A stretch of 64,000 nucleotides of DNA, from contig JAHFDG010000015.1 of NCBI GenBank assembly GCA_023249105.1, positions 1 to 64,000 of the forward strand, written 5' to 3'. How positions within the stretch are numbered: the first letter of the stretch is position 1; every line of letters starts with the position of its first letter. The DNA is from Candidatus Methanoperedens sp. Lineage in GTDB: Archaea; Halobacteriota; Methanosarcinia; Methanosarcinales; Methanoperedenaceae. Both the position numbers and the translations under genes were made by a program. Shown in pieces: positions 16,261 through 35,575 of this stretch. Under the pieces are notes generated by a model. That model was not told where the DNA came from, ran no database searches, and was given only the letters and a program-made list of their open reading frames with translations.

Positions 16261-19200
16261 TCAGTCCAAGTATTTCTTGATCCTTTTAATAATTTCTTCG
16301 TTATTGAACATCGCTCTTGTCTTATCAAGCAATATGTTCCCAAATAATAGCGATGCACCTTCTTTACTTTTATCTTTGGTTTCTATTTGTATCAATTTTT
16401 GTGAAACTGCCCAGAGATCAGCAATAGGCGAAACATTGTAGTTCTGGATACTGCCTGTTATCTCCCGGTCCACAAGTTGAAGTTTGTTGAGTACATCTTT
16501 TTTGTGTTTATCTATGAATTCTTCGGGGTTGGTCATGTATAAGTTGATCATTTGATTATAATCTGCCATATTTATCGACACTTCTACTTTTCCGGACGCT
16601 TTAGAGCGCATGTTAATGAAATCCGAGATATTTTCTTCATTAGTCAGTGTGGTTTCCATTTCCTTGGTAATTTCCTCAGCCACAAAATAGAGATTATAAA
16701 TCTTTTCTTTTGAGGGATCAGAATCTAAATACCCTGGTGTAGTGGCTATAGTTTCAATGAGCCTTATGATCTCAATACAGATGCCCTTATAATATTCCGG
16801 GATGCACATATCGCATGAAGAAGATAGTTTTTTCATAGATTCATGCAATGATTTTTTGATATTATCCCCAATAGCTTTCAGTTCCTCATCAAGGTTTATT
16901 TCGGGCTTTAAGTAGATTTTCTTGTTCAGCTTTATATCGTTCACATCCAGAGACAGTACTTCAGTTTTATAATATTCCTTTTGAACCGATATGTCATGGC
17001 TGCCAAGCGATATGTCTGGGATCACCACATCTCCTTTCTCGTCGGTCATAAAGCTCATCTCGCCAAGTTTAACTTCAGCTCCAGAGAGTGGTCTTTCATT
17101 AGCAAATTCATACACTGAAATTTGCATTGTTGCTTTACCCCCGAGTTCGATGAGAATCCTATCATTTTTATTAACCTCTAATTCTCGTTTTTCTTCTTCG
17201 AACCCTTTAGAATTAATTCTCAGTTTGTACCATCCTTCTCTAACCTTTCCAAAAATCACCTTGCCGTCAATATCACTTACCCTTTCAATAAGCTCTCCGT
17301 CAGCGGATTCGAGAATTACTGTTGCTTTCCGGATTGGAGTTTTATTATACATGTTTTTTACTTCCAAAATCAAAGTGTAGGTATTTTCAATTTTTCTTGG
17401 TGGTTCTGGAACTGTAATCTCTTTTTTGCCAGGCTTTGATTTTGGCTTATCTACCTTGAGTGCAGTATCTACCCCCCGGGTATCTTTAGGTATGACTTTT
17501 TTGGGTTTGAAAAAGTGAAAAACCACAAGAAGAAAGACTACTAATACGACCAATAATATGACCAGAAAAGTTAGGGACTTATTTGAAGATGAGTCGTTCG
17601 AATAGTTCAGAGTATAAGTAGTTGGAATGCTGGGCGTAGAGGTTGATGTAATTTCATATCCACCTGAAAGAAGAGAACTTTCGCCGCTTATGGATTTTTC
17701 AATCAAAGGATAGAACCTGAGATTTGAGCCATCGTTTGCAACTTTAAATTTCAACCCGCCCATTAAATCGACAGTTCCAGAATTTAATAGGATTCTATTC
17801 TTATTAACTAAAACAACTGAGTCGCTATTAGAGCCTGTGACTTCGAATACTCCAAATCTGTCTCCGAGCCTAATATTACCAGCAGAATCAGAAGTCAGAA
17901 AAGTATATCTTAACTGCACCATATCTGAGGTTGCGCCCGCAAAAACACTATCTAAATAAGTGACCAGTATCGGCACAGATCCTTCATCGCCAAAATTAGC
18001 TTCGTATGTATATATTTGACCCTGTGCTAATACCTTATCATCCAGTTTTTTACCGTTTTTACTAAATACAAGCCATGCTTGCCGTGGAGATGCTTTGGCA
18101 TCGATTGATTGTGCTGTGATCGTATATCCGTATCCTATATCCCATGTTTCGCCGACTGTGAGCGATTTCTTTTCAGATGTTGACGCACCTTGTTCTAGCA
18201 GTATTTTTGCAAGTTTATTACTTTTTCCATTAATTGCAATGTATTTGTCTCCCTGCCAGCCAACTGCATTATAATAATTTTTGCCACCAACAGATATGCC
18301 CTTGGCTGATGTAACTTTATAGTTTACAGGAGCCGCTGAGGTTCGATAAGTAAGACTATTAGTTTCAATAAAATTATTGTTAGCATTAAATGAGCTAAGA
18401 GTAAGGGTCTCTGTGCTCTGGTCACTATCAAGATCGTACCATAACCCTGCAAAGTTATTAGCATTCCATGAGGCAGATCCCTTCGCCAGTTCACCTCTGA
18501 TTGTGTATTTATCCGATTCCTGTAATCTGATTACAGGAAAATATGTAAGGCGATCGCTATCAGCAACCATAAACTTAATATTACCCATCAAATCAACGCT
18601 CGCTCCTTTTAGAAGCTGTACTCCCACGTCATTTATCAATGCTAAATTATTATCATTTGCCGTAGAGACTTTGAATATTCCGTATTTATCACCTGACTGG
18701 ATTGTTAGGACGCTTTTTGAAACCAACCAGGAATATTTGAATTCAACAACATCACTTGTAGTACCAGAATTGATATTATTTATGTATGTTACAAAAATCG
18801 GTACGTTTGTTTCTCCTGCAAGGTATCCGCTGTAACTGTATATTTGCCCTTTAGCGATTACCTTATCATCCAGTTTTATGCCATCTTTACCGAGTACGAT
18901 CCATGCTTGCGGTGGAGATGCCTTAGCATCGATTGATTGTGCTGTAAGCGTGTAGCCGTCTCCCATGTCCCATGTTTGACCGACCCCAAGAACTTTGCTT
19001 TCCTGCGACTCTTGCTCTAAAACCAGCTTTGAGAGTTTATTTGCTTTACCATTAATAGCGATATACTTTTGTCCCTGCCATCCGATAGCGTAATAAGAAG
19101 TCTTTCCATCCACAGGCAGCCCTGTTGCAGAGTATACTCTAAATAGAATAGCCGTATCGAAAGTGGTGTATTGTAAGTTACCCTGCTCTATAAAGCGATT

Positions 19201-19413
19201 GTAATCATTTATTGAACCACGGACAACTAAAGACTCTGTACTTTTGTCAGCTTCGATATCGTACCAGAAACCTGCAAAGCTCTGGGCATTCCATGAAGCC
19301 TGTCCTGTGGCTTTAGAACCCCTGATTTCAATGCCTGCTGCTGCAATATTGGTTAAAAGAATTATTAATGCTGCGATTAAAATTAATTGTTTTATTTTAA
19401 GTGATTTAATCAT
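16261..19413 (-). CDS. S-layer-type protein with tandem DUF1608-like domains, TM helix and cytoplasmic CarbopepD_reg-like domains plus conserved C-module
   Basis: Signal peptide. Two ~280-aa repeats (SWNAxxFAGxWYD...AIGWQGxKYIAINGKxNKL...GxTWDxGxGYTxTAQSIDAKASP) are typical of Methanosarcina S-layer DUF1608. A TM segment LTFLVILLVVLVVFLLVVF follows. Cytoplasmic beta-sandwich repeats and a C-module with CDMCIPEYYKGIC and PIADLW complete the protein. Confidence 0.65.
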   Translation of the reverse strand: MIKSLKIKQLILIAALIILLTNIAAAGIEIRGSKATGQASWNAQSFAGFWYDIEADKSTESLVVRGSINDYNRFIEQGNLQYTTFDTAILFRVYSATGLPVDGKTSYYAIGWQGQKYIAINGKANKLSKLVLEQESQESKVLGVGQTWDMGDGYTLTAQSIDAKASPPQAWIVLGKDGIKLDDKVIAKGQIYSYSGYLAGETNVPIFVTYINNINSGTTSDVVEFKYSWLVSKSVLTIQSGDKYGIFKVSTANDNNLALINDVGVQLLKGASVDLMGNIKFMVADSDRLTYFPVIRLQESDKYTIRGELAKGSASWNANNFAGLWYDLDSDQSTETLTLSSFNANNNFIETNSLTYRTSAAPVNYKVTSAKGISVGGKNYYNAVGWQGDKYIAINGKSNKLAKILLEQGASTSEKKSLTVGETWDIGYGYTITAQSIDAKASPRQAWLVFSKNGKKLDDKVLAQGQIYTYEANFGDEGSVPILVTYLDSVFAGATSDMVQLRYTFLTSDSAGNIRLGDRFGVFEVTGSNSDSVVLVNKNRILLNSGTVDLMGGLKFKVANDGSNLRFYPLIEKSISGESSLLSGGYEITSTSTPSIPTTYTLNYSNDSSSNKSLTFLVILLVVLVVFLLVVFHFFKPKKVIPKDTRGVDTALKVDKPKSKPGKKEITVPEPPRKIENTYTLILEVKNMYNKTPIRKATVILESADGELIERVSDIDGKVIFGKVREGWYKLRINSKGFEEEKRELEVNKNDRILIELGGKATMQISVYEFANERPLSGAEVKLGEMSFMTDEKGDVVIPDISLGSHDISVQKEYYKTEVLSLDVNDIKLNKKIYLKPEINLDEELKAIGDNIKKSLHESMKKLSSSCDMCIPEYYKGICIEIIRLIETIATTPGYLDSDPSKEKIYNLYFVAEEITKEMETTLTNEENISDFINMRSKASGKVEVSINMADYNQMINLYMTNPEEFIDKHKKDVLNKLQLVDREITGSIQNYNVSPIADLWAVSQKLIQIETKDKSKEGASLLFGNILLDKTRAMFNNEEIIKRIKKYLD

Positions 19414-19429
19414 TTATACCTCTATGGCG

Positions 19430-21019
19430 TCAGAGAGGGTTTATTTTTAGCACTCTTATTATTTCTGGAGAAGTTAACATTTTTTTAGTAGTGTCAAGCA
19501 GTATGTTTGCAAGCAAGAGTGACGCCGCTTCCTCATATTCATTTTTGGCTCCTGTAATAATTTTTTGTGATATGCTCCATAGATTGGCTATAGGATTTAT
19601 GTTAAAATTTTGTAGGCATTTGGTTATTTCCGCATCAGTATCCTGAAGTTTCTTTAAAATCTTAGATTTATAAGTTATCAAGAATTCAACCGGGCTGCTC
19701 ATATATGATTGTATTGTAGCATCATAATCAGAGGGGTTAATAGCTATTCTTGGATTCGTCTTGATGCCCCTGCTCGCCATGTTAATAAATTCCGTGATGT
19801 TCTCGCTGTTTGTTAAAATAAGTTCCATTTCCTTGCAGATTTGACTAGTTACTTTGTACAGTGTATTTATTTTATCAGATGATTGATCTGCGTAAACATA
19901 AACAGAAGTGGAAGCTATTGTTTCATTCAGTTTAATCAACTCGTTGCATATACCTTTATAATACTCCGGAATACACATATCGCAGGCATAGGAGAGTTTC
20001 TTCATCGATTCGTTTATTGAATTCCTGAGCTTCTCTCCCTGAATTATATACTCATCACTCAATTTAATATCGGGTTTCAGAAATATCTTTATATCCTGAT
20101 TAATCTCTTTGATTTCCTGGGTGGTCGTTTCCAGTTTATAGGAATCTTTTGTAACAGTCAAGTCATATTTTCCAAACGAAATATCCTGAATGAACGCAGC
20201 CCCTTTTTCATCGGTTCTGACTTCTCTGTCTCCAAGATTTATTCTTGCATCAGCGATTGCACTCTGGTTCACACTATCTAAAACATGAATTGTCAGATTG
20301 GCTTTTCCTTTAAGTTCAATACTAATCCTGTCATTTTTATTTAATGCTATTTCACGGGATTCTTCTTCAAACCCTTTTGAATTAACAATTAATGTATACG
20401 CACCTTCCTTCACCTTCCCAAAAATAACTTTCCCATCAATATCGCTAATTCTTTCTAATTTTTCTGTATCATTCCGAAGAAAAACAATGGCTTTAGGTAA
20501 AGGTTCTTTGTTAAATTTGTTTTTAATTTCAACTATCAAGGTATAAGTAGGAACATCAGTTATTGTTTTCTGGGTCGGAGTTTCAGTCTCAGGTTCACCT
20601 TCGCCTTCTTCGACATACTCTTTCCTGCAATTTTCACATAACAATTCTCCATCAGAATAAACTAAATCATCCGTGATTTTACCGCAGTTTTGACATGCCA
20701 TTCTAATGGGGACCGTTGTACCTGCAGGTTCACCAGAAGTTGTTTTTTTGCAGTGTGGACACCGTTGCAACGTCTCCAATTTTTCTTTTCCACAATGTTC
20801 ACAAAAAACGATTTTGCCTTTCGGTCTGACATAGACGTATAACGGGACTATAAGTAAAGCTAAAATAAAAGTACCAATGCCCCAAAGAAAAATAGCCAAA
20901 ATAAAAGTACTAATGCCCCAGAGAGACCAGTTTTTGGCTCTTTTTTTTGCATCGCTGGCAATCCAGAATACGATTGCAATCAAAAAGAGAAATAATATCC
21001 AGCTACTGTCATTAGCCAT
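19430..21019 (-). CDS. Membrane protein: 2 TM, cytoplasmic zinc ribbons, 2 CarbopepD_reg-like domains, conserved C-module
   Basis: N-terminal hydrophobic helices. CEHCG...CPHCK...CQNCG...CENC. The C-terminal ~330 aa are paralogous to the C-terminus of 16261..19413 (ACDMCIPEYYKGIC, PIANLW). Confidence 0.6.
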   Translation of the reverse strand: MANDSSWILFLFLIAIVFWIASDAKKRAKNWSLWGISTFILAIFLWGIGTFILALLIVPLYVYVRPKGKIVFCEHCGKEKLETLQRCPHCKKTTSGEPAGTTVPIRMACQNCGKITDDLVYSDGELLCENCRKEYVEEGEGEPETETPTQKTITDVPTYTLIVEIKNKFNKEPLPKAIVFLRNDTEKLERISDIDGKVIFGKVKEGAYTLIVNSKGFEEESREIALNKNDRISIELKGKANLTIHVLDSVNQSAIADARINLGDREVRTDEKGAAFIQDISFGKYDLTVTKDSYKLETTTQEIKEINQDIKIFLKPDIKLSDEYIIQGEKLRNSINESMKKLSYACDMCIPEYYKGICNELIKLNETIASTSVYVYADQSSDKINTLYKVTSQICKEMELILTNSENITEFINMASRGIKTNPRIAINPSDYDATIQSYMSSPVEFLITYKSKILKKLQDTDAEITKCLQNFNINPIANLWSISQKIITGAKNEYEEAASLLLANILLDTTKKMLTSPEIIRVLKINPL

Positions 21020-21114
21020 CTTACATCCCTTTAACTTTTATCAAGATTACCTCTTTCTTATTTTAATTAATCGTAAATTTCAAATTAATAGCGCAATCAC
21101 CATTTAAGTCAATA

Positions 21115-23175
21115 TTAAAACATGCTGATCGCCAGGCGCGCTTTCACCTCTTCTTTATTATACATTTCCCTTACATGGTCAAGCAATTTATCGTCGATGA
21201 ATAGCATAACGCCCCGTTTCTTTGCATCTGCTTCATTCATACTGTTCTCCAGCAATTTTTGCGCCACCCTCCAGAGATCAGCCACAGGCTGTATAGTAAG
21301 AGTGCCGCTTAATTGCGTCAGTTCATTATCTATCTCATTGAGCTTGTTACCAACATCCCTGAAATGGTTCTTGTGATAATTCGCGGTGTCGCGTACAAGT
21401 TCGCTGAACTTTTCAGGTGAATAGTCAGATACAGTCAGATCATCAACAGGAGGCAGATTCTGGATTGAAAAGTAAAAGTCCACATTGCTTTTTTCCCTCA
21501 TGATTCTTGAAATTTCATCCGCTAAAAATTCTGTTGTGCTAAGAGTATATTTTATTATTTCGTCTGGACTTGTTTTTGCACCAAGAAATTCAACAGGTCT
21601 TTTTATTATTTTGTCTACTAATTGCGTGGGTTTTTCTCCTACCTTTTTAAAGAATAATGGAATGCACGTATCGTATGTAGAAACTTCTTTAAAACCAGTA
21701 TTGAGTTTCTCATTGATTTTACTGATCGAGTTGAGAAATTCCGGCTTTGGTTGATAGTTGAATCTGAGGTCAAGCGTCACAGCACATGTTCTGTTTTCAA
21801 TGATAGTTACCTGTTTTTCGACCGGATCGTACAGTGAGGGAATGCTTGTTTTAAGGCGGACAATATAATCTCCAATAGACAATTTCTGGTTTATTCTACC
21901 GTTGTCATCTGTAGCAAAATCCATCGCCTGAGAAGCGCCTTTTTTCATCAAGCTAACTGGGGTTCCAGCAAAGGGTTTACCAGTTGCTTGCTCAGAGATT
22001 GTTATATCAAGCGTACCTGCTTTTTTGAAAAGCTGGATTCTCTTTGTAGTTTCTGAACTGCTTAAGGGAATATTCTTTTGTTCAACGAATTCCCCGCCCG
22101 AACTGCGTATAGAAACGACATATTGTTTATTTTTGGAAATGGTAAACTTCGCAATCCCTGAAGCATCTGTAACACCAGGGCTCCCGTTTGCATCCACCAG
22201 AGAAGTAGTCTCTTTAACACTCACGTTGATTCCGCTGATAGGGTTACCAGCTTCGTCCACTACCTCTATCTGTACTGGCTGCCGTTTGATCAGGGATATT
22301 TTGATTCTTTCATCGTCGGAAGGGATGTTTACTTCTCTTGAAGTGGATTCATAATTCCCACCACCGTCAACTTCAATTTTGTAGGTTCCCTTAGGAAGTT
22401 CTAAGTGATATGTCCCGTCAAACTCAATGCGGGCAAGGTAAGGCATACCACTTTTATTAACCGCTCTGACTTTTGCATCTGTGATTCTTACAAATCCTGA
22501 TTCATCGAGTAAGTCAATTTGCAATTTATTGGTTAACGTTGCAATAGAAGGGCTCACGAGCCTTTGTTCAGATTCGTTCTCATCAGATGTTTTAATTCTT
22601 ATGAGACCTAGTTTATATAATCCCCAAAATACTCCAGCGAGACCTAATAAAAACAAAGCTAAATTAATATAAACATTGGAAAACAACTTAGATAGTATAC
22701 CCTGCGGAGGGGTTTCTGTAGGTGCGGTCGTAATTTCTGGAGTGGTAGCCGCTGGTGTTGTTGGTGCTGGAGTCGTGGGTGATGGGGTGGGTGCAGGTGT
22801 CGGAGTGGAAGTCGGAGCAGGGGGATTTTTATTGATGACTGTAATTTTAGTTGCTAAATTATCACTTATATTAGTTACCGTTACATCAAAACTTTTTCTT
22901 AATGTTAGATTTTTTAGGGATTCTGGATATAAATTTGAATTAGATATATTTAGCACTAATTTTCCATCATCCTTAATTGTTTCATTGAATGAAGACTCTG
23001 GAAAATCTAGTCTATAAGTAGCTCCTTTACTGAAATTTAGATAAGATAATGTTAAGTTATCTCCGTTTAGTTCGCCTGTGGGTTCCGTAGCAGCAGTGGT
23101 GGTAATCGAAAACGAAAACATCACCAAAAATACAAAAAATATCCTCAATCCGTTCATAGATGACCCCGTTATCAT
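21115..23175 (-). CDS. Envelope-spanning protein: signal peptide, extracellular domain, Pro/Thr linker, TM, 3 CarbopepD_reg-like domains, divergent C-module
   Basis: PPAPTSTPTPAPTPSPTTPAPTTPAATTPEITTAPTETPP linker and a TM helix LALFLLGLAGVFWGLY. The C-terminus has TYDTCIPLFFKKVG...PVADLWRVAQKL, homologous to the C-module of the two downstream genes. Confidence 0.6.
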   Translation of the reverse strand: MITGSSMNGLRIFFVFLVMFSFSITTTAATEPTGELNGDNLTLSYLNFSKGATYRLDFPESSFNETIKDDGKLVLNISNSNLYPESLKNLTLRKSFDVTVTNISDNLATKITVINKNPPAPTSTPTPAPTPSPTTPAPTTPAATTPEITTAPTETPPQGILSKLFSNVYINLALFLLGLAGVFWGLYKLGLIRIKTSDENESEQRLVSPSIATLTNKLQIDLLDESGFVRITDAKVRAVNKSGMPYLARIEFDGTYHLELPKGTYKIEVDGGGNYESTSREVNIPSDDERIKISLIKRQPVQIEVVDEAGNPISGINVSVKETTSLVDANGSPGVTDASGIAKFTISKNKQYVVSIRSSGGEFVEQKNIPLSSSETTKRIQLFKKAGTLDITISEQATGKPFAGTPVSLMKKGASQAMDFATDDNGRINQKLSIGDYIVRLKTSIPSLYDPVEKQVTIIENRTCAVTLDLRFNYQPKPEFLNSISKINEKLNTGFKEVSTYDTCIPLFFKKVGEKPTQLVDKIIKRPVEFLGAKTSPDEIIKYTLSTTEFLADEISRIMREKSNVDFYFSIQNLPPVDDLTVSDYSPEKFSELVRDTANYHKNHFRDVGNKLNEIDNELTQLSGTLTIQPVADLWRVAQKLLENSMNEADAKKRGVMLFIDDKLLDHVREMYNKEEVKARLAISMF

Positions 23176-24542
23176 TCCTCCTCCACCTCGTCCTCGTCTT
23201 CCTCCTCTTTGCAGAACTCCTTCACTACTTTCTCTGTATGGTCTATATAATTCTTTAAAATTCCTTCAATACGCACAATCTCTTCCACTGAAAGTTTCAC
23301 ATTATCCAGCTCCACATGACCGCCTTCTTCAGCCATCATGAGGATTTTCTTTAATGATTTGAAATCCTGCCAGGGCTTCTCCAGCATTTCTTTTAAACTG
23401 AAACCTCCAAGAAGCAGCAGCACATCGAAAGTATCTTTCTTACTTTTATTATACGCCAGGGAAACCATTCCCATCTTTCCGCAAATGTTTTCCTTCTTCC
23501 ACTTATTGAAAATACTGTTGATTTTATCCTCTGTGAAATCCCCTTTGTTCAAATGCTTCTCAGGTACGCTAACAATCAGGTACCCGATAACAGCAGTCTT
23601 GGGATCCATATTTACGAATGAATTTTTTGCTGCTTCATCAAGAGCCATTTCAATTTCAATGAAATTAATATCATTATCAACAGAAACACATGGAGTAAAA
23701 TGATACAGGTTCATTAAACTTGGAAACTTCACATAATCCTTGATATCGATCACGCCTTTCGAAAGTCTCCCCGGTGCGATCATCAAATCAATGGCTTTGA
23801 TTATTTTTTTATTTATATCAGGGAATTTAGGATCAATTCCCTCGGTTAATTCAATATTTTCAGCAATTTTTGAATTATCAACTATCAAGACCATATCTGC
23901 ATTTTGCTGAGAATTATCCCCGAATTTCAGAAGCCTTGAAAGCCCGCACACAGCATTGAATTGCCTCTGATCAGGTTCAGTCGAGTATGGAAGTATTGCC
24001 AGCGCCACATGGATATGGTTTTGAAGAGACACAGAGGTGCCGTGTTTCATCTGATGGATAATGTACGGAATACTGCCATTCCCTGTTCCGCCGCCCAGCG
24101 CAGCCATGTCCAGAACAACATCCCCTGCTGCCGTGCCGAGCGCTTCAATCGGTCTGCGGATTTTCGTCTCAAAATCTTTCCTGGCGTACTCCTCGCCTTC
24201 CTTATAAACATTGCCTGCGCCGCCGCCGCCAAATAAAAGTATATTCCTCCTTCCTATTTGCGCAATCAGGGCTTTTTCTTCCTCGGTTACAGCCTTTTTT
24301 TCAAGCTCTAATAAAGTATTACTTATATCAGTCCTGTTGCTGTTCATCAATAAAATTCTGTTATCTATCGCTTCATTTTTCATTTTCGTGAAATAGAGAG
24401 AAGCTACCTTTCCGGCACCTTCGCCTGATGCTAGGATGATCCACCGGGTAAATTGCCTTTCAGCGCTTTCTTCAATCGTTTCTGCTCTTGATGGCCGGAC
24501 AGCCTCAAGGTTCTCTTCTAACTGGCTCATAAAATACCTCAA
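23172..24542 (-). CDS. Divergent tubulin/FtsZ-superfamily GTPase with acidic C-terminal tail
   Basis: T1-like Gly loops IILASGEGAGK and LLFGGGGAGN. T4 signature LGGGTGNGS. LIVDNSKI corresponds to the DNEAL region of FtsZ/tubulin. T7-like GVIDIKD. The C-terminal EEEDEDEVEEE resembles a tubulin E-hook. Confidence 0.7.
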   Translation of the reverse strand: MRYFMSQLEENLEAVRPSRAETIEESAERQFTRWIILASGEGAGKVASLYFTKMKNEAIDNRILLMNSNRTDISNTLLELEKKAVTEEEKALIAQIGRRNILLFGGGGAGNVYKEGEEYARKDFETKIRRPIEALGTAAGDVVLDMAALGGGTGNGSIPYIIHQMKHGTSVSLQNHIHVALAILPYSTEPDQRQFNAVCGLSRLLKFGDNSQQNADMVLIVDNSKIAENIELTEGIDPKFPDINKKIIKAIDLMIAPGRLSKGVIDIKDYVKFPSLMNLYHFTPCVSVDNDINFIEIEMALDEAAKNSFVNMDPKTAVIGYLIVSVPEKHLNKGDFTEDKINSIFNKWKKENICGKMGMVSLAYNKSKKDTFDVLLLLGGFSLKEMLEKPWQDFKSLKKILMMAEEGGHVELDNVKLSVEEIVRIEGILKNYIDHTEKVVKEFCKEEEDEDEVEEE

Positions 24543-26680
24543 CTATTTTTCCATATCAATTTCGAATCATATTCTATATTTTTATAATAATCATATTCTT
24601 TTTTAAGCCCTTCAATAATCGCAATAATTTCCTCCACTGGCAGTGGCGCCGAGAGGTAACCTTCGGTCAGCTCTTGGATTTTTTCCTTCTTGCCGACCTC
24701 TATATTTTCTTCAAGAAGGGTCTCGATTTCCTTTCGCAGGGCATCGACATCATAAACCATGTAATCTTTTCGGTATTTGATGATTTTGAACTTCTCATTG
24801 TCCTTTGACCACAGATAGAGCAAACATGGACTATATTCAACTTTCAGTCTATCATACGTAGAGAGTATAAATTTTTTAGAATCAATTTCTTTCTGTATTA
24901 TGTCTTTGAATTTAACTAATGACTTTTGTAAAGATTCTTCCTTATCCTGGCATAGTTTTTCCCCGAGCGGTACTTCTTTTAATTTGAGTTCGATGGAAAG
25001 GTCGTTATCCAGTTCAATTTCTTTACTCTGACTTTTATGTCCTTTTTGTTTGATTAATAATTTATACGAACCTTTACTCAAACCCATCAAAATTGCATTT
25101 CCACCATTATCCGATACTTCTTTTTTAATAATTTTGTCGTCAAGCTTCAGGGAAACTTCGGCACCGTTTAACGGCAGGTTATCCTTATTTAATACTCTCA
25201 CAGAAACTTTATACAATTTTCTCGCAACCTGAAGAGAAGTAGTTAGAATTTTTTGGAAGCTGTCATATAAGGCATCCGGATGGAAATAACTGTATAATTC
25301 CATGAATTCTTCGGGATTTTTGACTTTAAGTTCAGCAACAGTAACTTTTCCTTTAGCATCAAGCTCACTTTTGATTTTATTTTCAATTTTACTGTAGATC
25401 CCAATTATCTTTGCTTTTAAGCCACTTTTTTCCATTATTGGAATCATTATTTTTAAGAGGCTTGAGAACTTTTCGGGATAAGCTTTCACTTTTGTTTCAT
25501 TCAGCAACTCGTCATATTCTTTTTCAACTGGTTGCCTTTCTGGATAGAAACGTTGTGGAAAATTAGCCTGCTTGATCGTGGTTTCATTATTTTTTAGAGT
25601 TGTGTATACCTCTTTAACTATTTCGTTTGCAGTTGGGATTATTTGGGGTTCTATTTGTTGCAGTTCTCCAATCTTTGAAGCGGATTCGAATCTTTTTGCA
25701 CGTTCTTCTAAAATCAATAACTTTTGGGTGTAATCATTATCGATTTTACCTTCAACTGTAGCAAGAATCTTCCCAATTGCAGAAAGTAAATCAGTCTTAT
25801 ATGCACTGAAATCCCCTCCAGCAATAGATTCAAGAGAATTCTTTATTCTTGTAAGGGATGCTATGCCTTTTTCGAAATCTCTGTAATTCTTGCTCTGAAT
25901 TATCTCCTCGATGCTGTTCATCTCCCGTTCTATGCTGGAGACGTCTTTGCCCAATTCCTTAGCCTTTTGCTTCCATTGTTTTGCTTCAGTTAAACAGGAT
26001 GATACGATATCTCTGAAGATGGAAGTAATATTATCGAGATAACGGGCATTTTCTATTATAGAGTTAGTTTCAAGGCTCTTATTGTTAATCTCAGCTTGAA
26101 GCCTTGATGCTGATGGATCTACGGTGTAACCAGCGCTCTTAAGGGTGTTTATATACGAAAGGTATGCCTTCGAAACTATATCTGTGAAATCTTTTATTTT
26201 GTTTTTCAAATGATTATCCATAGAATTTATATTTTTGGCGACATTATCAATGGTGTCGAGGTCGATTTTTTGGATGGATATTTCATTTAAGTTAGTGGTG
26301 TACGTTCCGTCAGTCTCAACAGCATTGATCCCTATCAAGGGTAATTCTTTATTCGCTAGAGTTTTTATTGCCTCATCAATATCATCTACCTGTAAACCAT
26401 AGGTTCTATTAATATCTCGTGCAACGGAGTGTAAATTCTTAAAATCGTAAGCGATTTTCTCAGTTTCCTGTGCTTTCAGAGTTAAACCAGGATCATGTCT
26501 TGAAGTTCTTAGTTGTTTAATATACTGATAAGCAAATGCTATGAAAAATAAAGGGATACCTATTATGGTGTAATAAAGAGCTGTCTCATAACCTTTAAAT
26601 AAAAATAATATGACGCTAACGCTAAACAATCCAACTATGATCAAAATTATTTTTAGATTATTTTTTGTCTCCATTTTCAT
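24539..26680 (-). CDS. Membrane protein (2 N-terminal TM) with long cytoplasmic coiled-coil and CarbopepD_reg-like beta-sandwich domain
   Basis: Hydrophobic helices at aa 10-55, then an extended heptad-rich region. KVSVRVLNKDNLPLNGAEVSLKLDDKIIKKEVSDNGGNAILMGLSKGSYKLLIKQKGH is a transthyretin-like fold motif. Confidence 0.55.
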   Translation of the reverse strand: MKMETKNNLKIILIIVGLFSVSVILFLFKGYETALYYTIIGIPLFFIAFAYQYIKQLRTSRHDPGLTLKAQETEKIAYDFKNLHSVARDINRTYGLQVDDIDEAIKTLANKELPLIGINAVETDGTYTTNLNEISIQKIDLDTIDNVAKNINSMDNHLKNKIKDFTDIVSKAYLSYINTLKSAGYTVDPSASRLQAEINNKSLETNSIIENARYLDNITSIFRDIVSSCLTEAKQWKQKAKELGKDVSSIEREMNSIEEIIQSKNYRDFEKGIASLTRIKNSLESIAGGDFSAYKTDLLSAIGKILATVEGKIDNDYTQKLLILEERAKRFESASKIGELQQIEPQIIPTANEIVKEVYTTLKNNETTIKQANFPQRFYPERQPVEKEYDELLNETKVKAYPEKFSSLLKIMIPIMEKSGLKAKIIGIYSKIENKIKSELDAKGKVTVAELKVKNPEEFMELYSYFHPDALYDSFQKILTTSLQVARKLYKVSVRVLNKDNLPLNGAEVSLKLDDKIIKKEVSDNGGNAILMGLSKGSYKLLIKQKGHKSQSKEIELDNDLSIELKLKEVPLGEKLCQDKEESLQKSLVKFKDIIQKEIDSKKFILSTYDRLKVEYSPCLLYLWSKDNEKFKIIKYRKDYMVYDVDALRKEIETLLEENIEVGKKEKIQELTEGYLSAPLPVEEIIAIIEGLKKEYDYYKNIEYDSKLIWKNS

Positions 26681-26692
26681 AGCTGTATAGCC

Positions 26693-27883: not shown

Positions 27884-27888
27884 TCAAA

Positions 27889-28269
27889 TCACCCTTTGAA
27901 TAAACCCCTACTTTCCTTGATATACAAAATAATGGTCGATATCCACAATCCCAGAATGATGCTGAGTCCCCCGCCAATTGCATATTTCTGGATGTTTTTA
28001 TCAGCATAACTTTTAAGTATGCTGGTTTTGTCATTCAGTTTTTTTGCATTTTCATTGGCTTCATTAATCTTGTCGTTTCTATCATTATATTGTTTTTTGA
28101 GTTGATCATAAGCAGAATCCAAATCCTTTGGAGATGAAGGACCAGTGGGCATCAATATTGATGATAACACATCAGGAAATAGAAGGTTCATGACGGCTGC
28201 CACGAGCAGTATGGTAGATATGACCAGAACCAGTTTTGCAATTGTCCTTTTCATTTCATTTGATGTCAA
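27889..28269 (-). CDS. Small 2-TM membrane protein with intervening coiled coil
   Basis: 126 aa. TM helices at aa 10-30 and 98-118. Confidence 0.45.
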   Translation of the reverse strand: MTSNEMKRTIAKLVLVISTILLVAAVMNLLFPDVLSSILMPTGPSSPKDLDSAYDQLKKQYNDRNDKINEANENAKKLNDKTSILKSYADKNIQKYAIGGGLSIILGLWISTIILYIKESRGLFKG

Positions 28270-28281
28270 TGTTCGGATCCT

Positions 28282-29583
28282 CTAAGCTTCGATATTTGCA
28301 AGATTTTTCGACTTCTCCTCATAGCTCTGCGCCAGGCGACTGATTTCATTTAATCTCTGGATTTTATCCTTTTCAAAAGTGAACAGGGTTGTAAGTGAAA
28401 CAAGGTTTCTTTTTGTTAAGGATACACCGAGATGGCACTCATTAAGTGTTGAATTTTTCACCATGAATTCTTCAATTCCCCTCGTATTTATTCTTATTTC
28501 GGATTTCTTGAGGTAATGAGGAGGCGCTCTTATTAGAGCGAGATTTTTTTCACATTCGTTTAAATTTATGTTAGCTAAAGACTGCTTTTTAGCAGCCAAT
28601 CTGGCTAGCATGAGGGTGTCAATTTTTTTATTTTTGTTTAATGGAATTATATAATTCAGAAGATCACAGGTTATTGAACAGGCCCTTCCAATCGTAGCAA
28701 AACCTGGTTCCCTTCCCTTGCCTTTATGGTCAAACGATAATGCCGTTACAACGTCGTTCATATCTATAACAGGAGGATTTAATTCTGGATATTGCTTTGG
28801 GTCAATTCTTTCCAAAATTAGCCCAGATATCAGATCGGCTATGCATGTCGCAATATAATCATTATAGCTCAGATACATACTTTCCATATTTGATTCAAAA
28901 GAAATGCGCTGGTTATCTACTATGATGAACCCGCTAACAACATCTTTTAATCGCATTATCCCGTAATTTGCATTCCATGCCTGTCTATCGCTGGATTCAT
29001 CTTCTGTTTGATTTGATTTGACTATATTTCTCCGTGTGGCAGGAAGGACACCAACAGCGATAATGTTAACTTTATTATTCGTATATTCTTTCAAAGCCTT
29101 GGCTATGATAGGGCTAATACCGCAACCTGTTCCACCACCCAGACCGAAAAATAAAAATGCGAAAGGAATATCGGATTTTTCATTAGTTTCTTCGGTTTCA
29201 GCATCAACAGCTTTTCTATGCGTCTTGCTTTTAAATCTTTCATCAAACATATCCAGAATGGACTGGTAACGCTGCTCCAGAACATCATTAGCACGTACCG
29301 GGTTCTTTCCAAACCCACCCACTACTTTTTCTTCAAATCCCTGCGTTTTTCCAGAAACTAGACCATGCGTTTGAGATATGCCATACCAGTTATTTCTATC
29401 CGGTATATTTTTTATATTATGAAGGTCTTTGGCTGTTGAATTGATTAAAATCGGGTCAGCTATAAGATTCATGTATTTGTACTTGAACAGCGAATCGACA
29501 ATCGCACCACCTGCCTGACCAGAGCCGATCATTAAATAAGCCATAAGGATACCACAAATCTCATTGATACCTGAAATTAACAA
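28282..29583 (-). CDS. Second divergent tubulin/FtsZ-superfamily GTPase
   Basis: T1 MIGSGQAGGAIV. T4 FGLGGGTGCGISP. IIVDNQRI (DNEAL-like). T7-like PPVIDMNDV. The true start is probably at MAYLMIGSG (about 29544) rather than the first in-frame Met. Confidence 0.7.
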   Translation of the reverse strand: MLISGINEICGILMAYLMIGSGQAGGAIVDSLFKYKYMNLIADPILINSTAKDLHNIKNIPDRNNWYGISQTHGLVSGKTQGFEEKVVGGFGKNPVRANDVLEQRYQSILDMFDERFKSKTHRKAVDAETEETNEKSDIPFAFLFFGLGGGTGCGISPIIAKALKEYTNNKVNIIAVGVLPATRRNIVKSNQTEDESSDRQAWNANYGIMRLKDVVSGFIIVDNQRISFESNMESMYLSYNDYIATCIADLISGLILERIDPKQYPELNPPVIDMNDVVTALSFDHKGKGREPGFATIGRACSITCDLLNYIIPLNKNKKIDTLMLARLAAKKQSLANINLNECEKNLALIRAPPHYLKKSEIRINTRGIEEFMVKNSTLNECHLGVSLTKRNLVSLTTLFTFEKDKIQRLNEISRLAQSYEEKSKNLANIEA

Positions 29584-29640
29584 TAGTAATCTATTTATAT
29601 CTTTTCATTGATTGATGTATCGGGTATGCATGTGCGACAG
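29546..29640. promoter_or_regulatory. Divergent AT-rich promoter region between the tubulin-like cluster (minus) and the 29612 gene (plus); TATA-like ATTTATAT
   Basis: Short AT-rich intergenic stretch with a TATA-like octamer near 29565. Confidence 0.3.
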
Positions 29641-30607
29641 GTATCATAAGACATTATTAAGTCTATTATTAGCATTAATTAGCTTGACAATTCTTGCAAA
29701 TGGGGCAACGGATTGCAGTTTGGACACAAAAGAATATGTCAAAAAAGTTAACGAGCTCAATTATCCAGAAATGTATGGCGATTACCCTGAACTCAAAACT
29801 ATTCAGAGCCAAACTGTTTCATCGTTGCAAGGGCGACCTTGTTTAGATAAAGAAACAAAAAATTACGTAGATATAATTGTAAAAATTATTAACACATACA
29901 ACGAACTGTATTCGTTATCTGAATCCAATATTCCAGAAAATCATGAAAGTGCTATAACTAAAGCGGAATTAATCAAGCCAGATATTGAAAGTTTGGAGAT
30001 TTATAAAGAATCGAGAGAAAAATATTATCCCTTACTAATAAAAATTTCTCTAAGAAAGTTTTATAAAAATGAGGCAGAATATTTTGAAAATAGAGTAAAA
30101 AATGAGCGAAATACAAACAACAAAATCAAATTTAGCTTAAATGAAGCAAGGGCATATAAAAATATAGGGGACCCTAAATATGCAGAAATAAGTTATCGTG
30201 CTGAAGCAGAAAAAGCAGCGTATGATTACGACATCAATCTAATTAAAGAAGCAATTCAAAATTCCAATGATTTTTTAAATTATGCAGATAGCAACGTTAA
30301 AGGATTCTTTACTTCTATCGAATTGTTCGGGAAGGGGTTCAAACTGGAAGAAAGCATTATCTATGCAAACAAATTATCCATTCATCACGAAGAAGATCAA
30401 CTCAAGAATCTGGGAGACGAGCTAACAGGGAAAATTCAAATAATAAAAAAGGAAGCTGCTGCTTCAATAATTAAATATATATTAATTATAAGTGTAATTT
30501 ATTTAATAGTTTCATTATATTTTTCCGGGTCAATAACGCGATGGAAAAAAGAAATAGATAATGTTGATTTAGGGAATGATTTGTTGGAGGGATTAACGCT
30601 TGAATAA
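29612..30607 (+). CDS. Secreted protein with C-terminal TM anchor
   Basis: Signal peptide LLSLLLALISLTILANG and a C-terminal hydrophobic helix. The true start is likely a few codons downstream of 29612. Confidence 0.45.
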   Translation: MMYRVCMCDRYHKTLLSLLLALISLTILANGATDCSLDTKEYVKKVNELNYPEMYGDYPELKTIQSQTVSSLQGRPCLDKETKNYVDIIVKIINTYNELYSLSESNIPENHESAITKAELIKPDIESLEIYKESREKYYPLLIKISLRKFYKNEAEYFENRVKNERNTNNKIKFSLNEARAYKNIGDPKYAEISYRAEAEKAAYDYDINLIKEAIQNSNDFLNYADSNVKGFFTSIELFGKGFKLEESIIYANKLSIHHEEDQLKNLGDELTGKIQIIKKEAAASIIKYILIISVIYLIVSLYFSGSITRWKKEIDNVDLGNDLLEGLTLE

Positions 30608-32654
30608 AATAAATAATTACCGGCAACTTATAATATTATTCTTTTTTAGTATACTTTTTATATCTCCGTCATGTGCAGCGCCTGTTTTAAGACTTAGTAA
30701 TGATCAAACTGTAAATAAAAATTTTGATAACCGTTTTGGTCCGGATTCTGCATATTCCGATTCCAGAACATTTTATATTTACAATGACGGCAATACTTCT
30801 ATGACCATTTCTAGTGTAACTGTTGATGGCCCAGGATACGGGATTACTATGAGTATTTATTCCTCCCCAAATTCGATTTCGGCAGGAGGTTCTGGCGCAA
30901 TAACAGTTTCATTTAACGTTCCGTCTAGCGTTTCTACAGGAACATATACCGGGGTTATTAATGTAAATACGGTGTCAGGTGGGAGTGGAACAATGAAACT
31001 AGTCTTAGTTGTTACTACAAAAATACCTGCTGAACTAGGTAGTATTGGAAGTCGCTCTGTTACAATTAAATTTGATAAACCAAAAGGATCTGTACCCAGT
31101 TTTCAAGGTAACGAAAGCATTACATTAAGAAACATTGGCGATTCGATATTATACATTGATAGTATATATGTATCTAATCCGAATAGTGACATAACACTTT
31201 CTATTTCAGGTTATCAGACACCGATTTCTCCAAAAGATAGTACAATGGCGACTCTTGTAATCACAGCCCAACCCAGTGCGCGCGAGGGAACGTTTAATGG
31301 ACAAATTACAGTTACTACCTCAAAGGAGGGTAGATATAGTGGAAAATATGGCACCCCAAAAACCGATAATGTGGAGGTTAGAGTAACTATTGAACATGGA
31401 ATAAACATGGAAATAACAAAATCATCAATAAATTTTGGAGATACGGAGTTATTAAAACAAAAAGAAGACTATATTGATATTAGCGAGACACTTGGATACA
31501 AGTCAATAAAAGACATTAAAATAACAAAATCAGGCCCTAACAAATGGCTCAGCGTTAGTCCTAATAGTCTGAGTAGCATAAATGCCTTCGGTTCAGAGAG
31601 AATTTCTGCTAAGCTACTTTATGAAGGGGATGCAGAACCTTATATAAATCATGAATGGATGTACACTATTTCTACTATTAACGCGGGTTCAAAAAGCTTT
31701 AAAGTAAGTTCAAAAATGATATTTGACCCCATTGTTCCTGAAAAAATCTGTAGTTCAAAATATAAGAGCATTGATGATACTAAAGAAATTGCTGAAAAGA
31801 TGTGCAGTGCATTGGGGTATGGTATTAATACTGCTGCAAAAACTTTTAAAATTAGTGAATTAATTTTATTATTTTCCATTGGGAGTTCTACTATAGATTT
31901 GTTAGATTCCTATATAATAGCTGAAGATTCTATAAATAAAGAGGAGCATGATACTGCCTATGAAAATCTTATTAAAGGGGTTGTATCAGCAAAAATAATT
32001 AATACCTATGCTGAAAAAATTTCTGATTATAACGTAAAACTTGATGTAAACTTTGTGAACGAGAAATCCAGTAATCTAATGAACAGCCTCTTGGAAAAAG
32101 AAACGAACTATTATGAATCGAAAAAAGATTCTGATTCACTTGATTCACTTCAATCAATGATTGCTTATGAAAGATTAAGCGAAATGTGGGGAGTTCTTGG
32201 TAATGACGAAAAACAAGTACATTATGATACTCTGGCAAAAGAAAAGTTTAAAGAACATAATAATTATGTTGATTCTGCAAAAGATAGCAGGCTTGAGGCA
32301 GAAAATCTGCTTAAAGAAACACAAAATAATTATCTTTCAAAATGGGGGGGGATGTATCTTTTGATTAATCCTTTTTATTACAGTACAGTCTCTCGCGAGC
32401 ATAATTCTATTGTTTCAAAATACGAGGAAGCAACTCAAAATTATGGGTTGGCAGGAGAAAAAGCAATTGCTGATAAAACAAAAGAACGTCTAAATGATAT
32501 AGAATCATTATTTAATAAAATCTATTCAATATTTTTTGTATTTACTGGGTTCTATACATTAGCATTTCTTGGAGTTTTATCACGAAGTACAAAGGCTATG
32601 ACGGCTTTTGTCAGAGATACTTCAGAAACCCGTATGGGGGATGATTTTCTGTGA
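30600..32654 (+). CDS. Secreted protein with CARDB/Ig-like repeats and helical C-terminal region, C-terminal TM
   Basis: Signal peptide. YIYNDGNTSMTISSVTVDG and ITLRNIGDSILYIDSIYVSN are CARDB-like. C-terminal hydrophobic helix. Confidence 0.5.
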   Translation: MNKINNYRQLIILFFFSILFISPSCAAPVLRLSNDQTVNKNFDNRFGPDSAYSDSRTFYIYNDGNTSMTISSVTVDGPGYGITMSIYSSPNSISAGGSGAITVSFNVPSSVSTGTYTGVINVNTVSGGSGTMKLVLVVTTKIPAELGSIGSRSVTIKFDKPKGSVPSFQGNESITLRNIGDSILYIDSIYVSNPNSDITLSISGYQTPISPKDSTMATLVITAQPSAREGTFNGQITVTTSKEGRYSGKYGTPKTDNVEVRVTIEHGINMEITKSSINFGDTELLKQKEDYIDISETLGYKSIKDIKITKSGPNKWLSVSPNSLSSINAFGSERISAKLLYEGDAEPYINHEWMYTISTINAGSKSFKVSSKMIFDPIVPEKICSSKYKSIDDTKEIAEKMCSALGYGINTAAKTFKISELILLFSIGSSTIDLLDSYIIAEDSINKEEHDTAYENLIKGVVSAKIINTYAEKISDYNVKLDVNFVNEKSSNLMNSLLEKETNYYESKKDSDSLDSLQSMIAYERLSEMWGVLGNDEKQVHYDTLAKEKFKEHNNYVDSAKDSRLEAENLLKETQNNYLSKWGGMYLLINPFYYSTVSREHNSIVSKYEEATQNYGLAGEKAIADKTKERLNDIESLFNKIYSIFFVFTGFYTLAFLGVLSRSTKAMTAFVRDTSETRMGDDFL

Positions 32655-35392: not shown

Positions 35393-35575
35393 TTTTTCTT
35401 AGCCTTTTTTGATATCTCATATGTTTGAGTAACTAACGTCTCTTTGCCGCAATGCGGACAAACCTTTGCGCTACCTGTAAACTTATGGCAGTGCGGGCAC
35501 CAATCAGTGGGTGTTTGAGCCATTTCTCGTTTTAGTTTCGCCCGTTTATAATAAGGTATTGCAAATATTATAGCC
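35389..35575 (-). repeat. Copy 2 of zinc-ribbon-tail repeat
   Basis: Conserved with the other copies at DNA and protein level. Confidence 0.5.

Follow-up and report, generated by a model that had tools for sequence, protein, structure and literature searches.

E-hooks project from the microtubule surface in eukaryotes, where they bind motors and MAPs and are modified by polyglutamylation, glycylation or tyrosination, and such acidic C-terminal tails are central to partner recruitment by microtubules. In alpha/beta-tubulin they are flexible, Glu/Asp-rich runs of 10–20 residues right after the last surface helix. Polymerisation of the phage tubulin homologues PhuZ/TubZ depends critically on an acidic C-terminal knuckle that runs along the neighbouring subunit (PMC3678025). 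FtsZ carries a C-terminal peptide and variable region after its globular core, which is a possible interaction platform. The published neighbourhoods of CetZ, a family of tubulin-like proteins involved in archaeal cell shape, comprise pili or cofactor-biosynthesis genes (PMC9856176). The non-canonical archaeal TSF, namely the Halo.Tub and CetZ-like groups, occur in quasi-tandem copies (Santana-Molina et al., 2023); they are patchily distributed over Halobacterota and Altiarchaeota, are neighboured by coiled-coil proteins of unknown function and take an unstable position between CetZ and tubulins (PMC9871819). The word "acidic" occurs 0 times in PMC9871819, and the Halo.Tub papers make no mention of acidic tails, a (K/E)WGF motif or a membrane-protein module. 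[quoted passage not shown]

The window analysed here, a stretch of 64,000 nucleotides from Candidatus Methanoperedens sp., encodes a tubulin-like protein with an acidic end, TubA, in an operon of eight same-strand genes with gaps of -4 to 16 nt and one gap of 95 nt (Table 1). The first-pass annotation had called TubA a tubulin-like GTPase, and the protein indeed matched the Pfam Tubulin family PF00091 (E 2e-11; 44.9 bits, gathering cut-off 33), while no tubulin C-terminal domain was reported in the Pfam scan. Its AF2 model (pLDDT 89.2, pTM 0.89) displayed a two-domain fold composed of a Rossmann-like GTPase domain, helix H7 and an activation domain. The top Foldseek matches were full-length tubulins (TMq 0.61–0.69), and CetZ and FtsZ scored 0.59 and 0.55, respectively; by modelled structure, the TubA family appears equally close to tubulins and CetZ. 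GGGTGNG, which fits the superfamily T4 signature GGGTG(S/T/N)G, and ID..D were invariant or nearly so among 59 TubA homologues. IDIKD is read as the T7 loop by analogy with the known FtsZ and tubulin motifs, and its acidic residue is presumed to be catalytic and to be given to the GTP of the next subunit. TubA is predicted to polymerise and to act as a GTPase.

Table 1. Features of the tubA locus, in positions of the window.
Feature	Positions	Strand	Remarks
TubA coding sequence	23172..24530	-	452 aa + stop, ATG 24530; = P0001
Ribosome-binding site of TubA, GAGGT	24536..24540	-	5-nt spacer to ATG 24530; overlaps upstream-gene TGA
T4 nucleotide-binding signature GGGTGNG, residues 146-152	24075..24095	-	columns G146-G152 invariant
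T7-loop-like motif IDIKD, residues 261-265	23736..23750	-	D265 invariant, D262 nearly invariant
Poly-acidic C-terminal tail K441-E452, KEEEDEDEVEEE	23175..23210	-	low-confidence model, probably disordered
SD-like GAGGTG, codons E448-V449	23184..23189	-	8 nt 5' of p686 ATG, within tail-coding DNA
ATGA overlap, TubA TGA / p686 ATG	23172..23175	-	same 4-nt overlap called in L002, L010
TubB, second highly divergent tubulin-like paralogue	28282..29583	-	pI 8.3, without acidic tail; PF00091 E 4e-13
p126	27889-28269	-	small membrane protein between tubB and p713
p396	26693-27883	-	small membrane protein between tubB and p713
p713	24539..26680	-	N-terminal transmembrane hairpin, long cytoplasmic helical region (coiled-coil in the first-pass annotation), CarboxypepD_reg-like beta-sandwich, C-terminal domain
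p686	21115..23175	-	signal peptide, Pro/Thr-rich exterior, one transmembrane helix, cytoplasmic module; translationally coupled to TubA
p529	19430..21019	-	N-terminal transmembrane helices, zinc ribbons, then p686-type cytoplasmic module
p1050	16261..19413	-	signal peptide, two S-layer domains (PF07752, E 1.6e-106), one transmembrane helix, Lys-rich linker, p686-type module
p331 + p684	29612..32654	+	divergent; signal peptide or N-terminal anchor + C-terminal transmembrane helix
p1105	11640..14957	+	PQQ-like beta-propeller/CARDB protein, convergent to operon

At the sequence level, TubA showed no affiliation with the tubulin family proper over both domains, although its structural likeness is full-length. 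The TubA family profile found CetZ1 (E 1.8e-15) as its best PDB match and CetZ2 at 7e-13, both limited to the N-terminal GTPase domain (profile positions 13–243), and gamma-tubulin (7e-10) and OdinTubulin (1e-8) were matched only over about positions 84–230. CetZ and FtsZ outscored the tubulins, which stayed at 7e-10 or weaker and within the GTPase domain. BtubA/B, OdinTubulin and Asgard AtubA/B differed from TubA in the T1 loop (SGEGAG) and the genomic context, and were matched with E-values of only 1e-8 to 1e-6, within the GTPase domain. CetZ itself differs from TubA in that the sequence similarity covers the GTPase domain only and the TubA neighbourhood is unrelated to the published CetZ ones; the Methanosarcinales have one clear CetZ elsewhere. 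In the FtsZ equivalog model TIGR00065, TubA reached 39.2 bits where 295.2 are required, which ruled it out as an FtsZ. FtsZl1 and the Borg "tubulin" (Borg subfam2487, likewise ~1050 aa with a coiled coil) are also archaeal, Methanoperedens-associated FtsZ-like proteins tied to membrane remodelling. However, TubA is compact (452 aa), has the whole fold and lacks a coiled coil, which ruled out this identity, and neither vWA nor OmpA, two of the FtsZl1 neighbours, had a Pfam match among the cluster proteins scanned.

TubA is a member of a small archaeal family, uncharacterised and termed non-canonical or CetZ-like here, which is probably the Halo.Tub-type group. The published description was matched in the quasi-tandem copies, the helical or coiled-coil neighbours, the patchy distribution over Halobacterota and Altiarchaeota and the unstable position between CetZ and tubulins; TubA and TubB share one operon, and Halobacterium pHS2 has three tubulin-like copies. 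The family is rare (~50 clusters at 50% identity in a set of 1.8 billion representatives), and no member has yet been characterised by experiment; its haloarchaeal homologues are annotated as "FtsZ family protein, noncanonical". Relatives on Halobacterium and Natrinema replicons offer a genetically accessible system.

The minus-strand ORF of tubA spans 23172..24542 and ends in ...EFCKEEEDEDEVEEE, followed by TGA. Its start had been thought to overlap the stop of the upstream gene. However, TTG 24542 is merely the first possible ORF start, and ATG 24530 is favoured. The protein read from this ATG (MSQLEEN...) is 100% identical to the database protein P0001, and no in-frame ATG, GTG or TTG was found 5' of the TubA ATG in the orthologous loci L002, L011 and L005; together with the GAGGT this ruled out the TTG. 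The upstream stop lies at 24539-24541, 8 nt from the ATG, and the two genes are still closely packed despite the absent overlap. At the other end, the proposed overlap with the downstream start was borne out in the sequence GAATGA (ATG 23175-23173, TGA 23174-23172), and the same 4 nt were also called in an 83%-identical orthologue (L002) and in Halobacterium (L010). Stoichiometric co-expression, which had been drawn from these overlaps, does not follow; a stop/start overlap is a sign of translational coupling in an operon.

A tail produced by frameshift, read-through or assembly error is hardly conceivable. The gene model showed neither truncation nor frameshift in its end-to-end alignment with orthologues, and the whole of TubA folds with high confidence. 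An identical protein occurs in independent assemblies (5 contigs; ENA, NCBI, Logan), and equivalent tails occur in orthologues from other samples. Nothing was found in support of such an error, the mechanical TTG start being the only wrong call.

The acidic end noticed in the first-pass annotation is real: D or E occupies 10 of the final 11 residues (P ~4e-8 at the TubA D+E fraction of 0.146), and besides TubA none of the 88 window ORFs of at least 100 aa exceeded 4 acidic residues in the last 11. TubA is structured up to about residue 440, much as tubulin is, and the tail, with a net charge of ~-9 over the last 12 residues, directly follows the last helix. The pLDDT fell to 69 and then 54 over the last two blocks (residues 441–452). 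Judged solely by this low pLDDT, the tail is probably disordered; AF2 draws it as a continuation of the helix. Like an E-hook, residues 441–452 form an acidic, probably flexible segment after the last helix.

Orthologues sharing at least 79% identity, all of the Methanoperedens clade and including Ca. M. nitroreducens, kept the tail in 17 distinct versions of 8–16 aa, with 74% D/E and net charges of -5 to -10. Lysines sat mainly at the helix junction, and none of the 17 had Lys or Arg in the last 10 residues. A change from GAG to AAG (Glu to Lys) needs one transition only. From this comparison, the sequence of the tail seems to drift while its charge is kept. The variants are phylogenetically related, and "charge conservation" rests on few independent events.

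Beyond that clade, conservation of the tail, for which orthologues were aligned, did not hold: orthologues of 60–65% identity, flanked by the same genes as in the window (L005, a 5.3-kb contig), lacked it, as did every other lineage and family representative. This agreed with the earlier statement that acidic tails are unusual in prokaryotic FtsZ homologues, and the sole acidic-tailed protein among 109 full-length profile matches has a eukaryote-type beta-tubulin ending. The contrast drawn with the conserved C-terminal peptide of FtsZ was also upheld, since other TubA clades end in a conserved (K/E)WGF, whereas the Methanoperedens tail conserves composition only and no defined peptide motif. 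In Hydrothermarchaeota it is TubB that gained an acidic tail, independently, and TubA there ends in EWGF. Because the tail is confined to the closest relatives, it would be a recent independent add-on and not a family hallmark; the tail-less orthologues within the same flanking genes indicate that the cluster works without it.

A common ancestry with the eukaryotic tails, marking a tubulin precursor, would accord with the E-hook-like composition and position of the tail and with a structure that resembles tubulins over the full length as strongly as it does CetZ. However, an E-hook is conserved in its family, and this tail is limited to one shallow clade; the nearest solved relatives by profile are CetZ1 and CetZ2; and published phylogenies set the CetZ-like/Halo.Tub groups apart from tubulins (PMC9871819). 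We consider such homology very improbable, and the tail distribution by itself appears effectively to refute it. The tail is better described as a lineage-specific acquisition of independent origin, on a protein that falls outside the tubulin family proper by sequence. Being clade-specific and maybe only weakly functional, it would have low evolutionary significance for eukaryotic tubulin; as a counterpart that evolved independently on a tubulin-like protein of archaea, it would be a natural experiment on tail function.

The DNA of the tail (23176-23209) is a degenerate period-3 array of GAR triplets and holds the putative Shine-Dalgarno (SD) site of p686. This site, overlooked in the first-pass annotation, would constrain part of the terminal Glu run. 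SD-type motifs are used throughout the operon, and tail-less orthologues (L005, L010) carry GAGGAG or GGAGGA in their last codons, just before the next start. GGAGG was not enriched over the whole window (78 against 68.6 expected), so the argument rests on the position of the motif and not on its frequency. An SD site requires only ~6 nt, compared with the 36 nt of the tail. Most likely, the tail originated when GAR (Glu/Asp) codons multiplied at a 3' end already bearing a GGAGG-type ribosome-binding site, which would belong to the downstream, translationally coupled gene, and was afterwards retained for its charge in the Methanoperedens clade.

The retention step could be questioned. Slippage-driven expansion at the SD-bearing 3' end might have left a near-neutral by-product, tolerated as a disordered segment without specific function. 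Low-complexity GAR runs can expand neutrally, and the triplet array, the SD motif that accounts for part of the run and the GAGGAG or GGAGGA ends of tail-less relatives suit this explanation. So do the variable length and unconserved sequence, the absence at 60–65% identity between the same flanking genes and the lack of a covarying partner. Yet all 17 variants are strongly negative and free of Lys and Arg in the last 10 residues, though a single transition would introduce Lys, and an SD site takes up only ~6 nt of the 36. An independent acidic tail on the Hydrothermarchaeota TubB also argues against it, as does the absence of such a run from other family representatives and from the other window ORFs, which indicates that gene ends in this genome segment are not generally prone to GAR expansion. 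We regard the by-product as possible, but doubtful.

We favour, with confidence evenly poised, the view that the tail is a clade-specific acquired polyanionic appendage kept for its charge and a functional analogue of the E-hook. TubA would be a cytoplasmic GTPase, co-transcribed with TubB and several membrane-spanning proteins, whose flexible polyanionic last 12 residues come after the last helix of a tubulin-like fold of full length. In filaments of TubA, or of TubA and TubB, the tail would stick out from the polymer surface and tune electrostatics: it would either keep lateral bundling in check or offer a dock to the basic TubB or to basic cytoplasmic stretches of the membrane proteins encoded alongside. 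The data show the sequence and gene model, the fold and family, the conserved operon, where the tail occurs and its double coding with the SD site; that TubA polymerises, that the tail is exposed on the surface, that its charge is under selection and that it has any partner is inferred.

The proteins compared yielded no basic partner that covaried with the tail. The p713 beta-sandwich had a net charge of +5 in the window and +3 in L011, but -1 in the tail-bearing L002. The p1050 linker is Lys-rich and juxtamembrane in the window and in L002; however, the S-layer fusion is missing at the tail-bearing L011 locus, so the linker is no general tail partner. The helical domains of the module shared by p686, p529 and p1050 are mildly acidic.

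TubB, the second paralogue, is 433 aa long by its ORF limits; a start at ATG 29544, giving 420 aa, is preferred by the gene caller and by comparison with orthologues. The TubA and TubB families matched each other in hhalign with a probability of 99.1% (E 1.6e-18), and both paralogues keep ID..D, as (V/I)ID..D among TubB orthologues, the equivalent of the T7-like motif. In the Methanoperedens clade TubB is basic (pI 8.3–8.9) and TubA acidic (net -18). This opposition of charge and the shared ID..D motif fit a PhuZ-type contact within the filament, where the tail would bind a basic patch of the adjacent subunit (TubA or TubB) and stabilise the polymer. PhuZ and PhiKZ TubZ are prokaryote-world tubulin homologues with an acidic C-terminal extension whose functional importance was shown for the phage proteins, and its knuckle sets the precedent (PMC3678025). 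However, a contact essential for polymerisation should be family-wide, whereas this tail is confined to one clade and varies in length; no ordered tail conformation was predicted; and TubB is basic also in lineages where no acidic tail exists (L037, L046, L047, L081). We think such a contact quite unlikely.

The surroundings of tubA recur with the family. The gene order of the window was repeated in L002, L003 and L004, and in L011 except for one inserted ORF and the missing S-layer fusion. In Halobacteria, the core arrangement of tubB, p713-like, tubA and p686-like genes recurs, and the cluster was found on haloarchaeal megaplasmids; genes of similar size (83 aa, 352 aa) occupy the p126/p396 position in Halobacterium. 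In Hydrothermarchaeota, tubB, a p713-like gene and tubA stand side by side, with p684-like genes and homologues of the p686 module upstream. In most lineages a p713-like gene lies immediately 5' of tubA and a p684-like gene accompanies the cluster. L002 and L011 have an orthologue of p1105 next to the cluster; the Halobacterium cluster is likewise flanked by a PQQ-like propeller, and no tblastn link between that propeller and p1105 was found. By gene context, the TubA family appears always to be set in a membrane-protein operon, here one with an S-layer fusion. An anti-phage defence system was rejected, as PADLOC matched 0 of 10 cluster proteins, and so was a viral origin, with no relative in IMG/VR and the cluster on haloarchaeal megaplasmids.

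The shared cytoplasmic module of p686, p529 and p1050 combines two transthyretin-like beta-sandwiches with a helical domain of ~200 aa. Its p529 version was modelled by AF2 with a pLDDT of 89.2; the C-terminal 260 aa of p529 retrieved 3 homologues as a query and the full-length protein 25. We speculate, as a tentative and rather improbable extension, that TubA and TubB build a cytoskeleton of tubulin-like, possibly heteropolymeric filaments with a physical connection through the membrane to the envelope, the three membrane proteins docking filaments via the shared module and the Methanoperedens tail serving as a docking or regulatory handle. If true, this would be an archaeal trans-envelope system linking the cytoskeleton to the S-layer, with a convergently evolved E-hook. 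The exterior parts of the three proteins differ: p1050 has the pair of S-layer domains, p686 a Pro/Thr-rich stalk and p529, with its cytoplasmic zinc ribbons, almost none.

The minus-strand ORF of TubA, a tubulin-like protein, was present with a C-terminus of ...KEFCKEEEDEDEVEEE followed by TGA. Asp or Glu made up 10 of the final 11 residues (P about 4e-8 given its own D+E frequency of 0.146), and the 87 other window ORFs of at least 100 aa carried at most four acidic residues among their final eleven. The acidic tail described in the first-pass annotation was thus confirmed. At the 3′ end, the ATG of the next gene (23175-23173) overlapped the TGA (23174-23172) within GAATGA, and gene calls gave an identical 4-nt stop/start overlap both in L002, an orthologous locus at 83% identity, and in Halobacterium (L010), so the claim of a downstream overlap also held. 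The claim that the start codon overlaps the upstream stop did not. TTG 24542 was no more than the first codon at which the ORF could start. A GAGGT motif lay ahead of ATG 24530 at a spacing of 5 nt, this ATG began both P0001, a database protein of 452 aa identical to TubA, and the gene called on the public contig, and no in-frame ATG, GTG or TTG was found upstream of the conserved tubA ATG in the orthologous loci L002, L011, and L005. Therefore the true order is the stop of p713, an 8-nt gap and the TubA ATG; the junction is still tight and of the operon type. The stoichiometric co-expression previously read from the overlaps was not sustained, since neither these nor the tail say anything on stoichiometry. 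An artefact of the gene model is of negligible probability.

TubA matched Pfam Tubulin (PF00091) above the threshold, and its score against the FtsZ equivalog model was far below the cut-off (39 vs. 295 bits). Across 59 aligned homologues, the GGGTGNG motif (T4) was invariant and the T7-like ID..D motif held an invariant Asp. The AlphaFold2 model built on this alignment (pLDDT 89.2, pTM 0.89) had disordered residues 1-21 and a last helix beginning at residue 415, and the confidence dropped to 69 and then 54 across residues 441-452. Full-length eukaryotic tubulins and OdinTubulin ranked at the top in Foldseek (TMq 0.61-0.69), followed by CetZ (0.59) and FtsZ (0.55). The sequence profile was nearest to CetZ1 (1.8e-15) and CetZ2 (7e-13) among solved structures, with tubulins at 7e-10 or weaker; these alignments to CetZ and tubulin structures cover the GTPase domain only.

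When 1.84 billion cluster representatives were searched exhaustively by HMM, only 51 matched at E ≤1e-30, so the TubA family is small. The haloarchaeal homologues are annotated as "FtsZ family protein, noncanonical." By description, TubA agrees with the "non-canonical" members of the tubulin superfamily in Brown and Duggin (PMC9856176). It agrees likewise with two groups in Santana-Molina et al. (PMC9871819), CetZ-like and "Halo.Tub," whose copies are quasi-tandem, lie next to coiled-coil proteins and take an unstable place between CetZ and tubulins. The family has already been noticed, uncharacterised; the novelty is a lineage-specific acidic tail on one member. Identity with FtsZl1 or the Borg "tubulin" was rejected: unlike TubA, both are about 1050 aa long with a coiled coil. 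The nearest named genome was Ca. Methanoperedens nitroreducens BE2012 (87% identity). A 69%-identical homologue of 721 aa (P0014) carried a C-terminal extension of ~270 aa, which may be a fusion or a read-through into the downstream gene, and a tubA fragment (84% identical, L086) lay on a contig that had been assigned, probably by mis-binning, to a "Bacteroidales bacterium."

TubA is the fifth gene in a run of eight minus-strand genes in the order TubB, p126, p396, p713, TubA, p686, p529, and p1050 (proteins named by length in aa), with gaps of -4 to 16 nt and a single exception of 95 nt. TubB is tubulin-like as well (PF00091, E 4e-13) and is a very distant paralogue of TubA (BLAST E 0.8; profile-profile probability 99.1%, E 1.6e-18, identity 23%). 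In the Methanoperedens clade it was a basic protein (pI 8.3-8.9) that lacked an acidic tail; its TTG 29583 start is probably too far upstream, since ATG 29544, for a protein of 420 aa, is preferred by gene callers and by the orthologues. When hydropathy was scanned under the positive-inside rule, most of p713 was predicted to be cytoplasmic, as were the last 380-500 residues of p686, p529, and p1050. The latter three share one module, in whose model (pLDDT 89.2) there are two beta-sandwiches of transthyretin-like type and a helical bundle of ~200 residues; structural counterparts were found for the beta-sandwiches only. On its exterior side p1050 has two Methanosarcinales S-layer domains (PF07752, E 1.6e-106). 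PADLOC gave no matches for the cluster, and no viral relatives were found in IMG/VR.

Positions of the features in the window
Feature	Position	Strand
TubA ORF	23172-24542	-
Tail-coding DNA of tubA	23176-23209	-
TubB ORF	28282-29583	-
Eight-gene run	16261-29583	-
IS3-type transposase	15346-16221	+
Two neighbouring genes of ~365 aa each	33204-35392	-
Large proteins with PQQ-like, Ig-like or CBM domains	35389-45664	-
Large proteins with PQQ-like, Ig-like or CBM domains	11640-14957	+
CDC48_N/zinc-ribbon protein	45640-46242	-
Vps4-like AAA ATPase	48966-50042	-
AAA-DisA (DAC) fusion	932-2725	+
Zinc-ribbon SPFH/Band-7 protein	9640-11496	+

The gene order was identical in the 83%-identical loci. The 87%-identical locus of strain BE2012 (L011) had one inserted ORF and missed the S-layer fusion; the extra 288-aa ORF lay between the p713 orthologue and tubA (L011 9125-9991) and contained an Arg-rich stretch, RRRMRRARRYRNTRQRPKR. 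A core made up of tubB, a p713-like gene, tubA and a p686-like one, close to which a p684-like gene also lay, was found again in many Halobacteria, among other places on pHS2, a plasmid of Halobacterium salinarum R1. On this megaplasmid (L010, AM774417.1), three tubulin-like genes (540, 384, and 407 aa) formed a single operon-like run. The cluster was also located on secondary replicons of Natrinema and Halobaculum, which suggests that it spread horizontally. In Hydrothermarchaeota, tubB, the p713-like gene and tubA were adjacent, with p684-like and p686-module homologues upstream, and Micrarchaeota and some further lineages retained a partial core. ANME-2a/c had a solitary tubA amid housekeeping genes. 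This tubA (~45% identity; L006, L007, and L012-L033, from Methanogaster and relatives) lay beside RuvC, MoaC, and CdhC genes with no TubB or membrane partner nearby, so TubA apparently can exist outside the operon. The conserved two-tubulin membrane operon is of greater interest than the tail itself, and the haloarchaeal cluster offers a genetically tractable model.

The C-termini of the orthologues were sorted into five classes by the residues after the invariant Tyr428. Haloarchaeal TubA had 6 residues past it, ANME-2a/c 13 (helix only), and orthologues P0015-P0017 (60-65% identity) 15, e.g., KFTEES. Hydrothermarchaeota, Micrarchaeota and others had 25-32 with a conserved (K/E)WGF end, and the Methanoperedens clade (at least 79% identity) 24-27, acidic tail included. 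The 17 distinct tails of this clade were 8-16 residues long, with 74% D/E and a net charge of -5 to -10. Lys was mostly limited to the helix junction, none of the 17 had Lys or Arg in the final 10 residues, and other interruptions included G, V, F, N, and A. Among the other family representatives at 50% identity, none had the acidic tail, which agrees with its proposed rarity among prokaryotic relatives, and among 109 full-length profile matches only one protein, with a eukaryote-type beta-tubulin ending, had such a tail. Flanking genes were unchanged around a tail-less orthologue on a short contig (L005). The expected conservation among orthologues was therefore seen at 79% identity and above and was missing at 60-65% and elsewhere: the tail is real, unusual and composition-conserved within one shallow clade, and it is not a family feature of TubA.

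The E-hook-like reading of the first-pass annotation held for the form of the tail, which is confined to one clade; true homology to the eukaryotic E-hook is very improbable. An acidic contact inside the filament, as in the "acidic knuckle" of PhuZ, has a published precedent (PMC3678025), but an element critical for polymerisation should be conserved family-wide, which makes this explanation improbable. In Hydrothermarchaeota (L008, L036, and L074-L076), TubB ended acidic (EELPEEIEVEE, FYEEEETETVEE) and TubA ended EWGF; the acidic TubB end is an independent gain inside the same system. The (K/E)WGF end was carried by orthologues P0036-P0056, P0138, P0150, and P0175 (loci L008 and L036) from Hydrothermarchaeota and several further lineages, in some with a basic tail after the peptide. 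It looks like a docking motif by analogy with the FtsZ C-terminal peptide, and no description of it was found in the tubulin-superfamily literature consulted.

The tail-coding DNA was a degenerate period-3 GAR array. Within it, GAGGTG (codons E448-V449) formed a Shine-Dalgarno-type site 8 nt ahead of the p686 ATG; AGGTGA, GAGGT, and similar motifs preceded many window starts by 5-9 nt. Orthologues without the tail also ended in GAGGAG(AGT)TAA or CTGGAGGAATGA immediately ahead of the next start. Thus the final Glu codons are partly explained by the downstream ribosome-binding site, and triplet expansion could plausibly have been seeded by an ancestral GAGGAG end. That the whole tail is a near-neutral by-product of slippage and this site is nevertheless rather unlikely: such expansion explains the origin of the tail and leaves 12 residues of kept negative charge unexplained.

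Here, we propose, with confidence evenly balanced, that the tail is a flexible polyanionic appendage, an analogue and not a homologue of the E-hook, on putative filaments of TubA or TubA/TubB. It would project at the filament surface and tune electrostatic interactions, either in bundling or in the docking of co-encoded membrane-protein parts or basic TubB, and its charge may be under selection. The fold, sequence motifs, operon, distribution of the tail and its overlap with the Shine-Dalgarno site are shown here; that TubA polymerises, that the tail is exposed and that its charge is selected are inferences. No partner was identified among the charge features of the co-encoded proteins: in the orthologous loci compared, neither p713 nor the p1050 linker had basic features that followed tail presence, and the helical domains of the p686/p529/p1050 module were mildly acidic.

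The IS3-type transposase (HTH_21 + rve), between the p1050 end of the operon and a beta-propeller gene, did not occur in L002, L003, and L004, which marks it as a recent insertion next to the cluster. Of the two ~365-aa genes adjoining the cluster, one matched GCS2-type carboxylate-amine ligase (PF04107, E 1e-18) and the other had no Pfam match. GCS2 differs from the ATP-grasp type of tubulin or RimK glutamylases. Four further sites held genes tied to membrane remodelling or signalling (last four rows of the table). The large proteins around the operon, whose domains are PQQ-like beta-propeller, Ig-like or CBM, are probably mostly exported, and a PQQ-like propeller gene was likewise next to the Halobacterium (911 aa) and Hydrothermarchaeota (899 aa) clusters.
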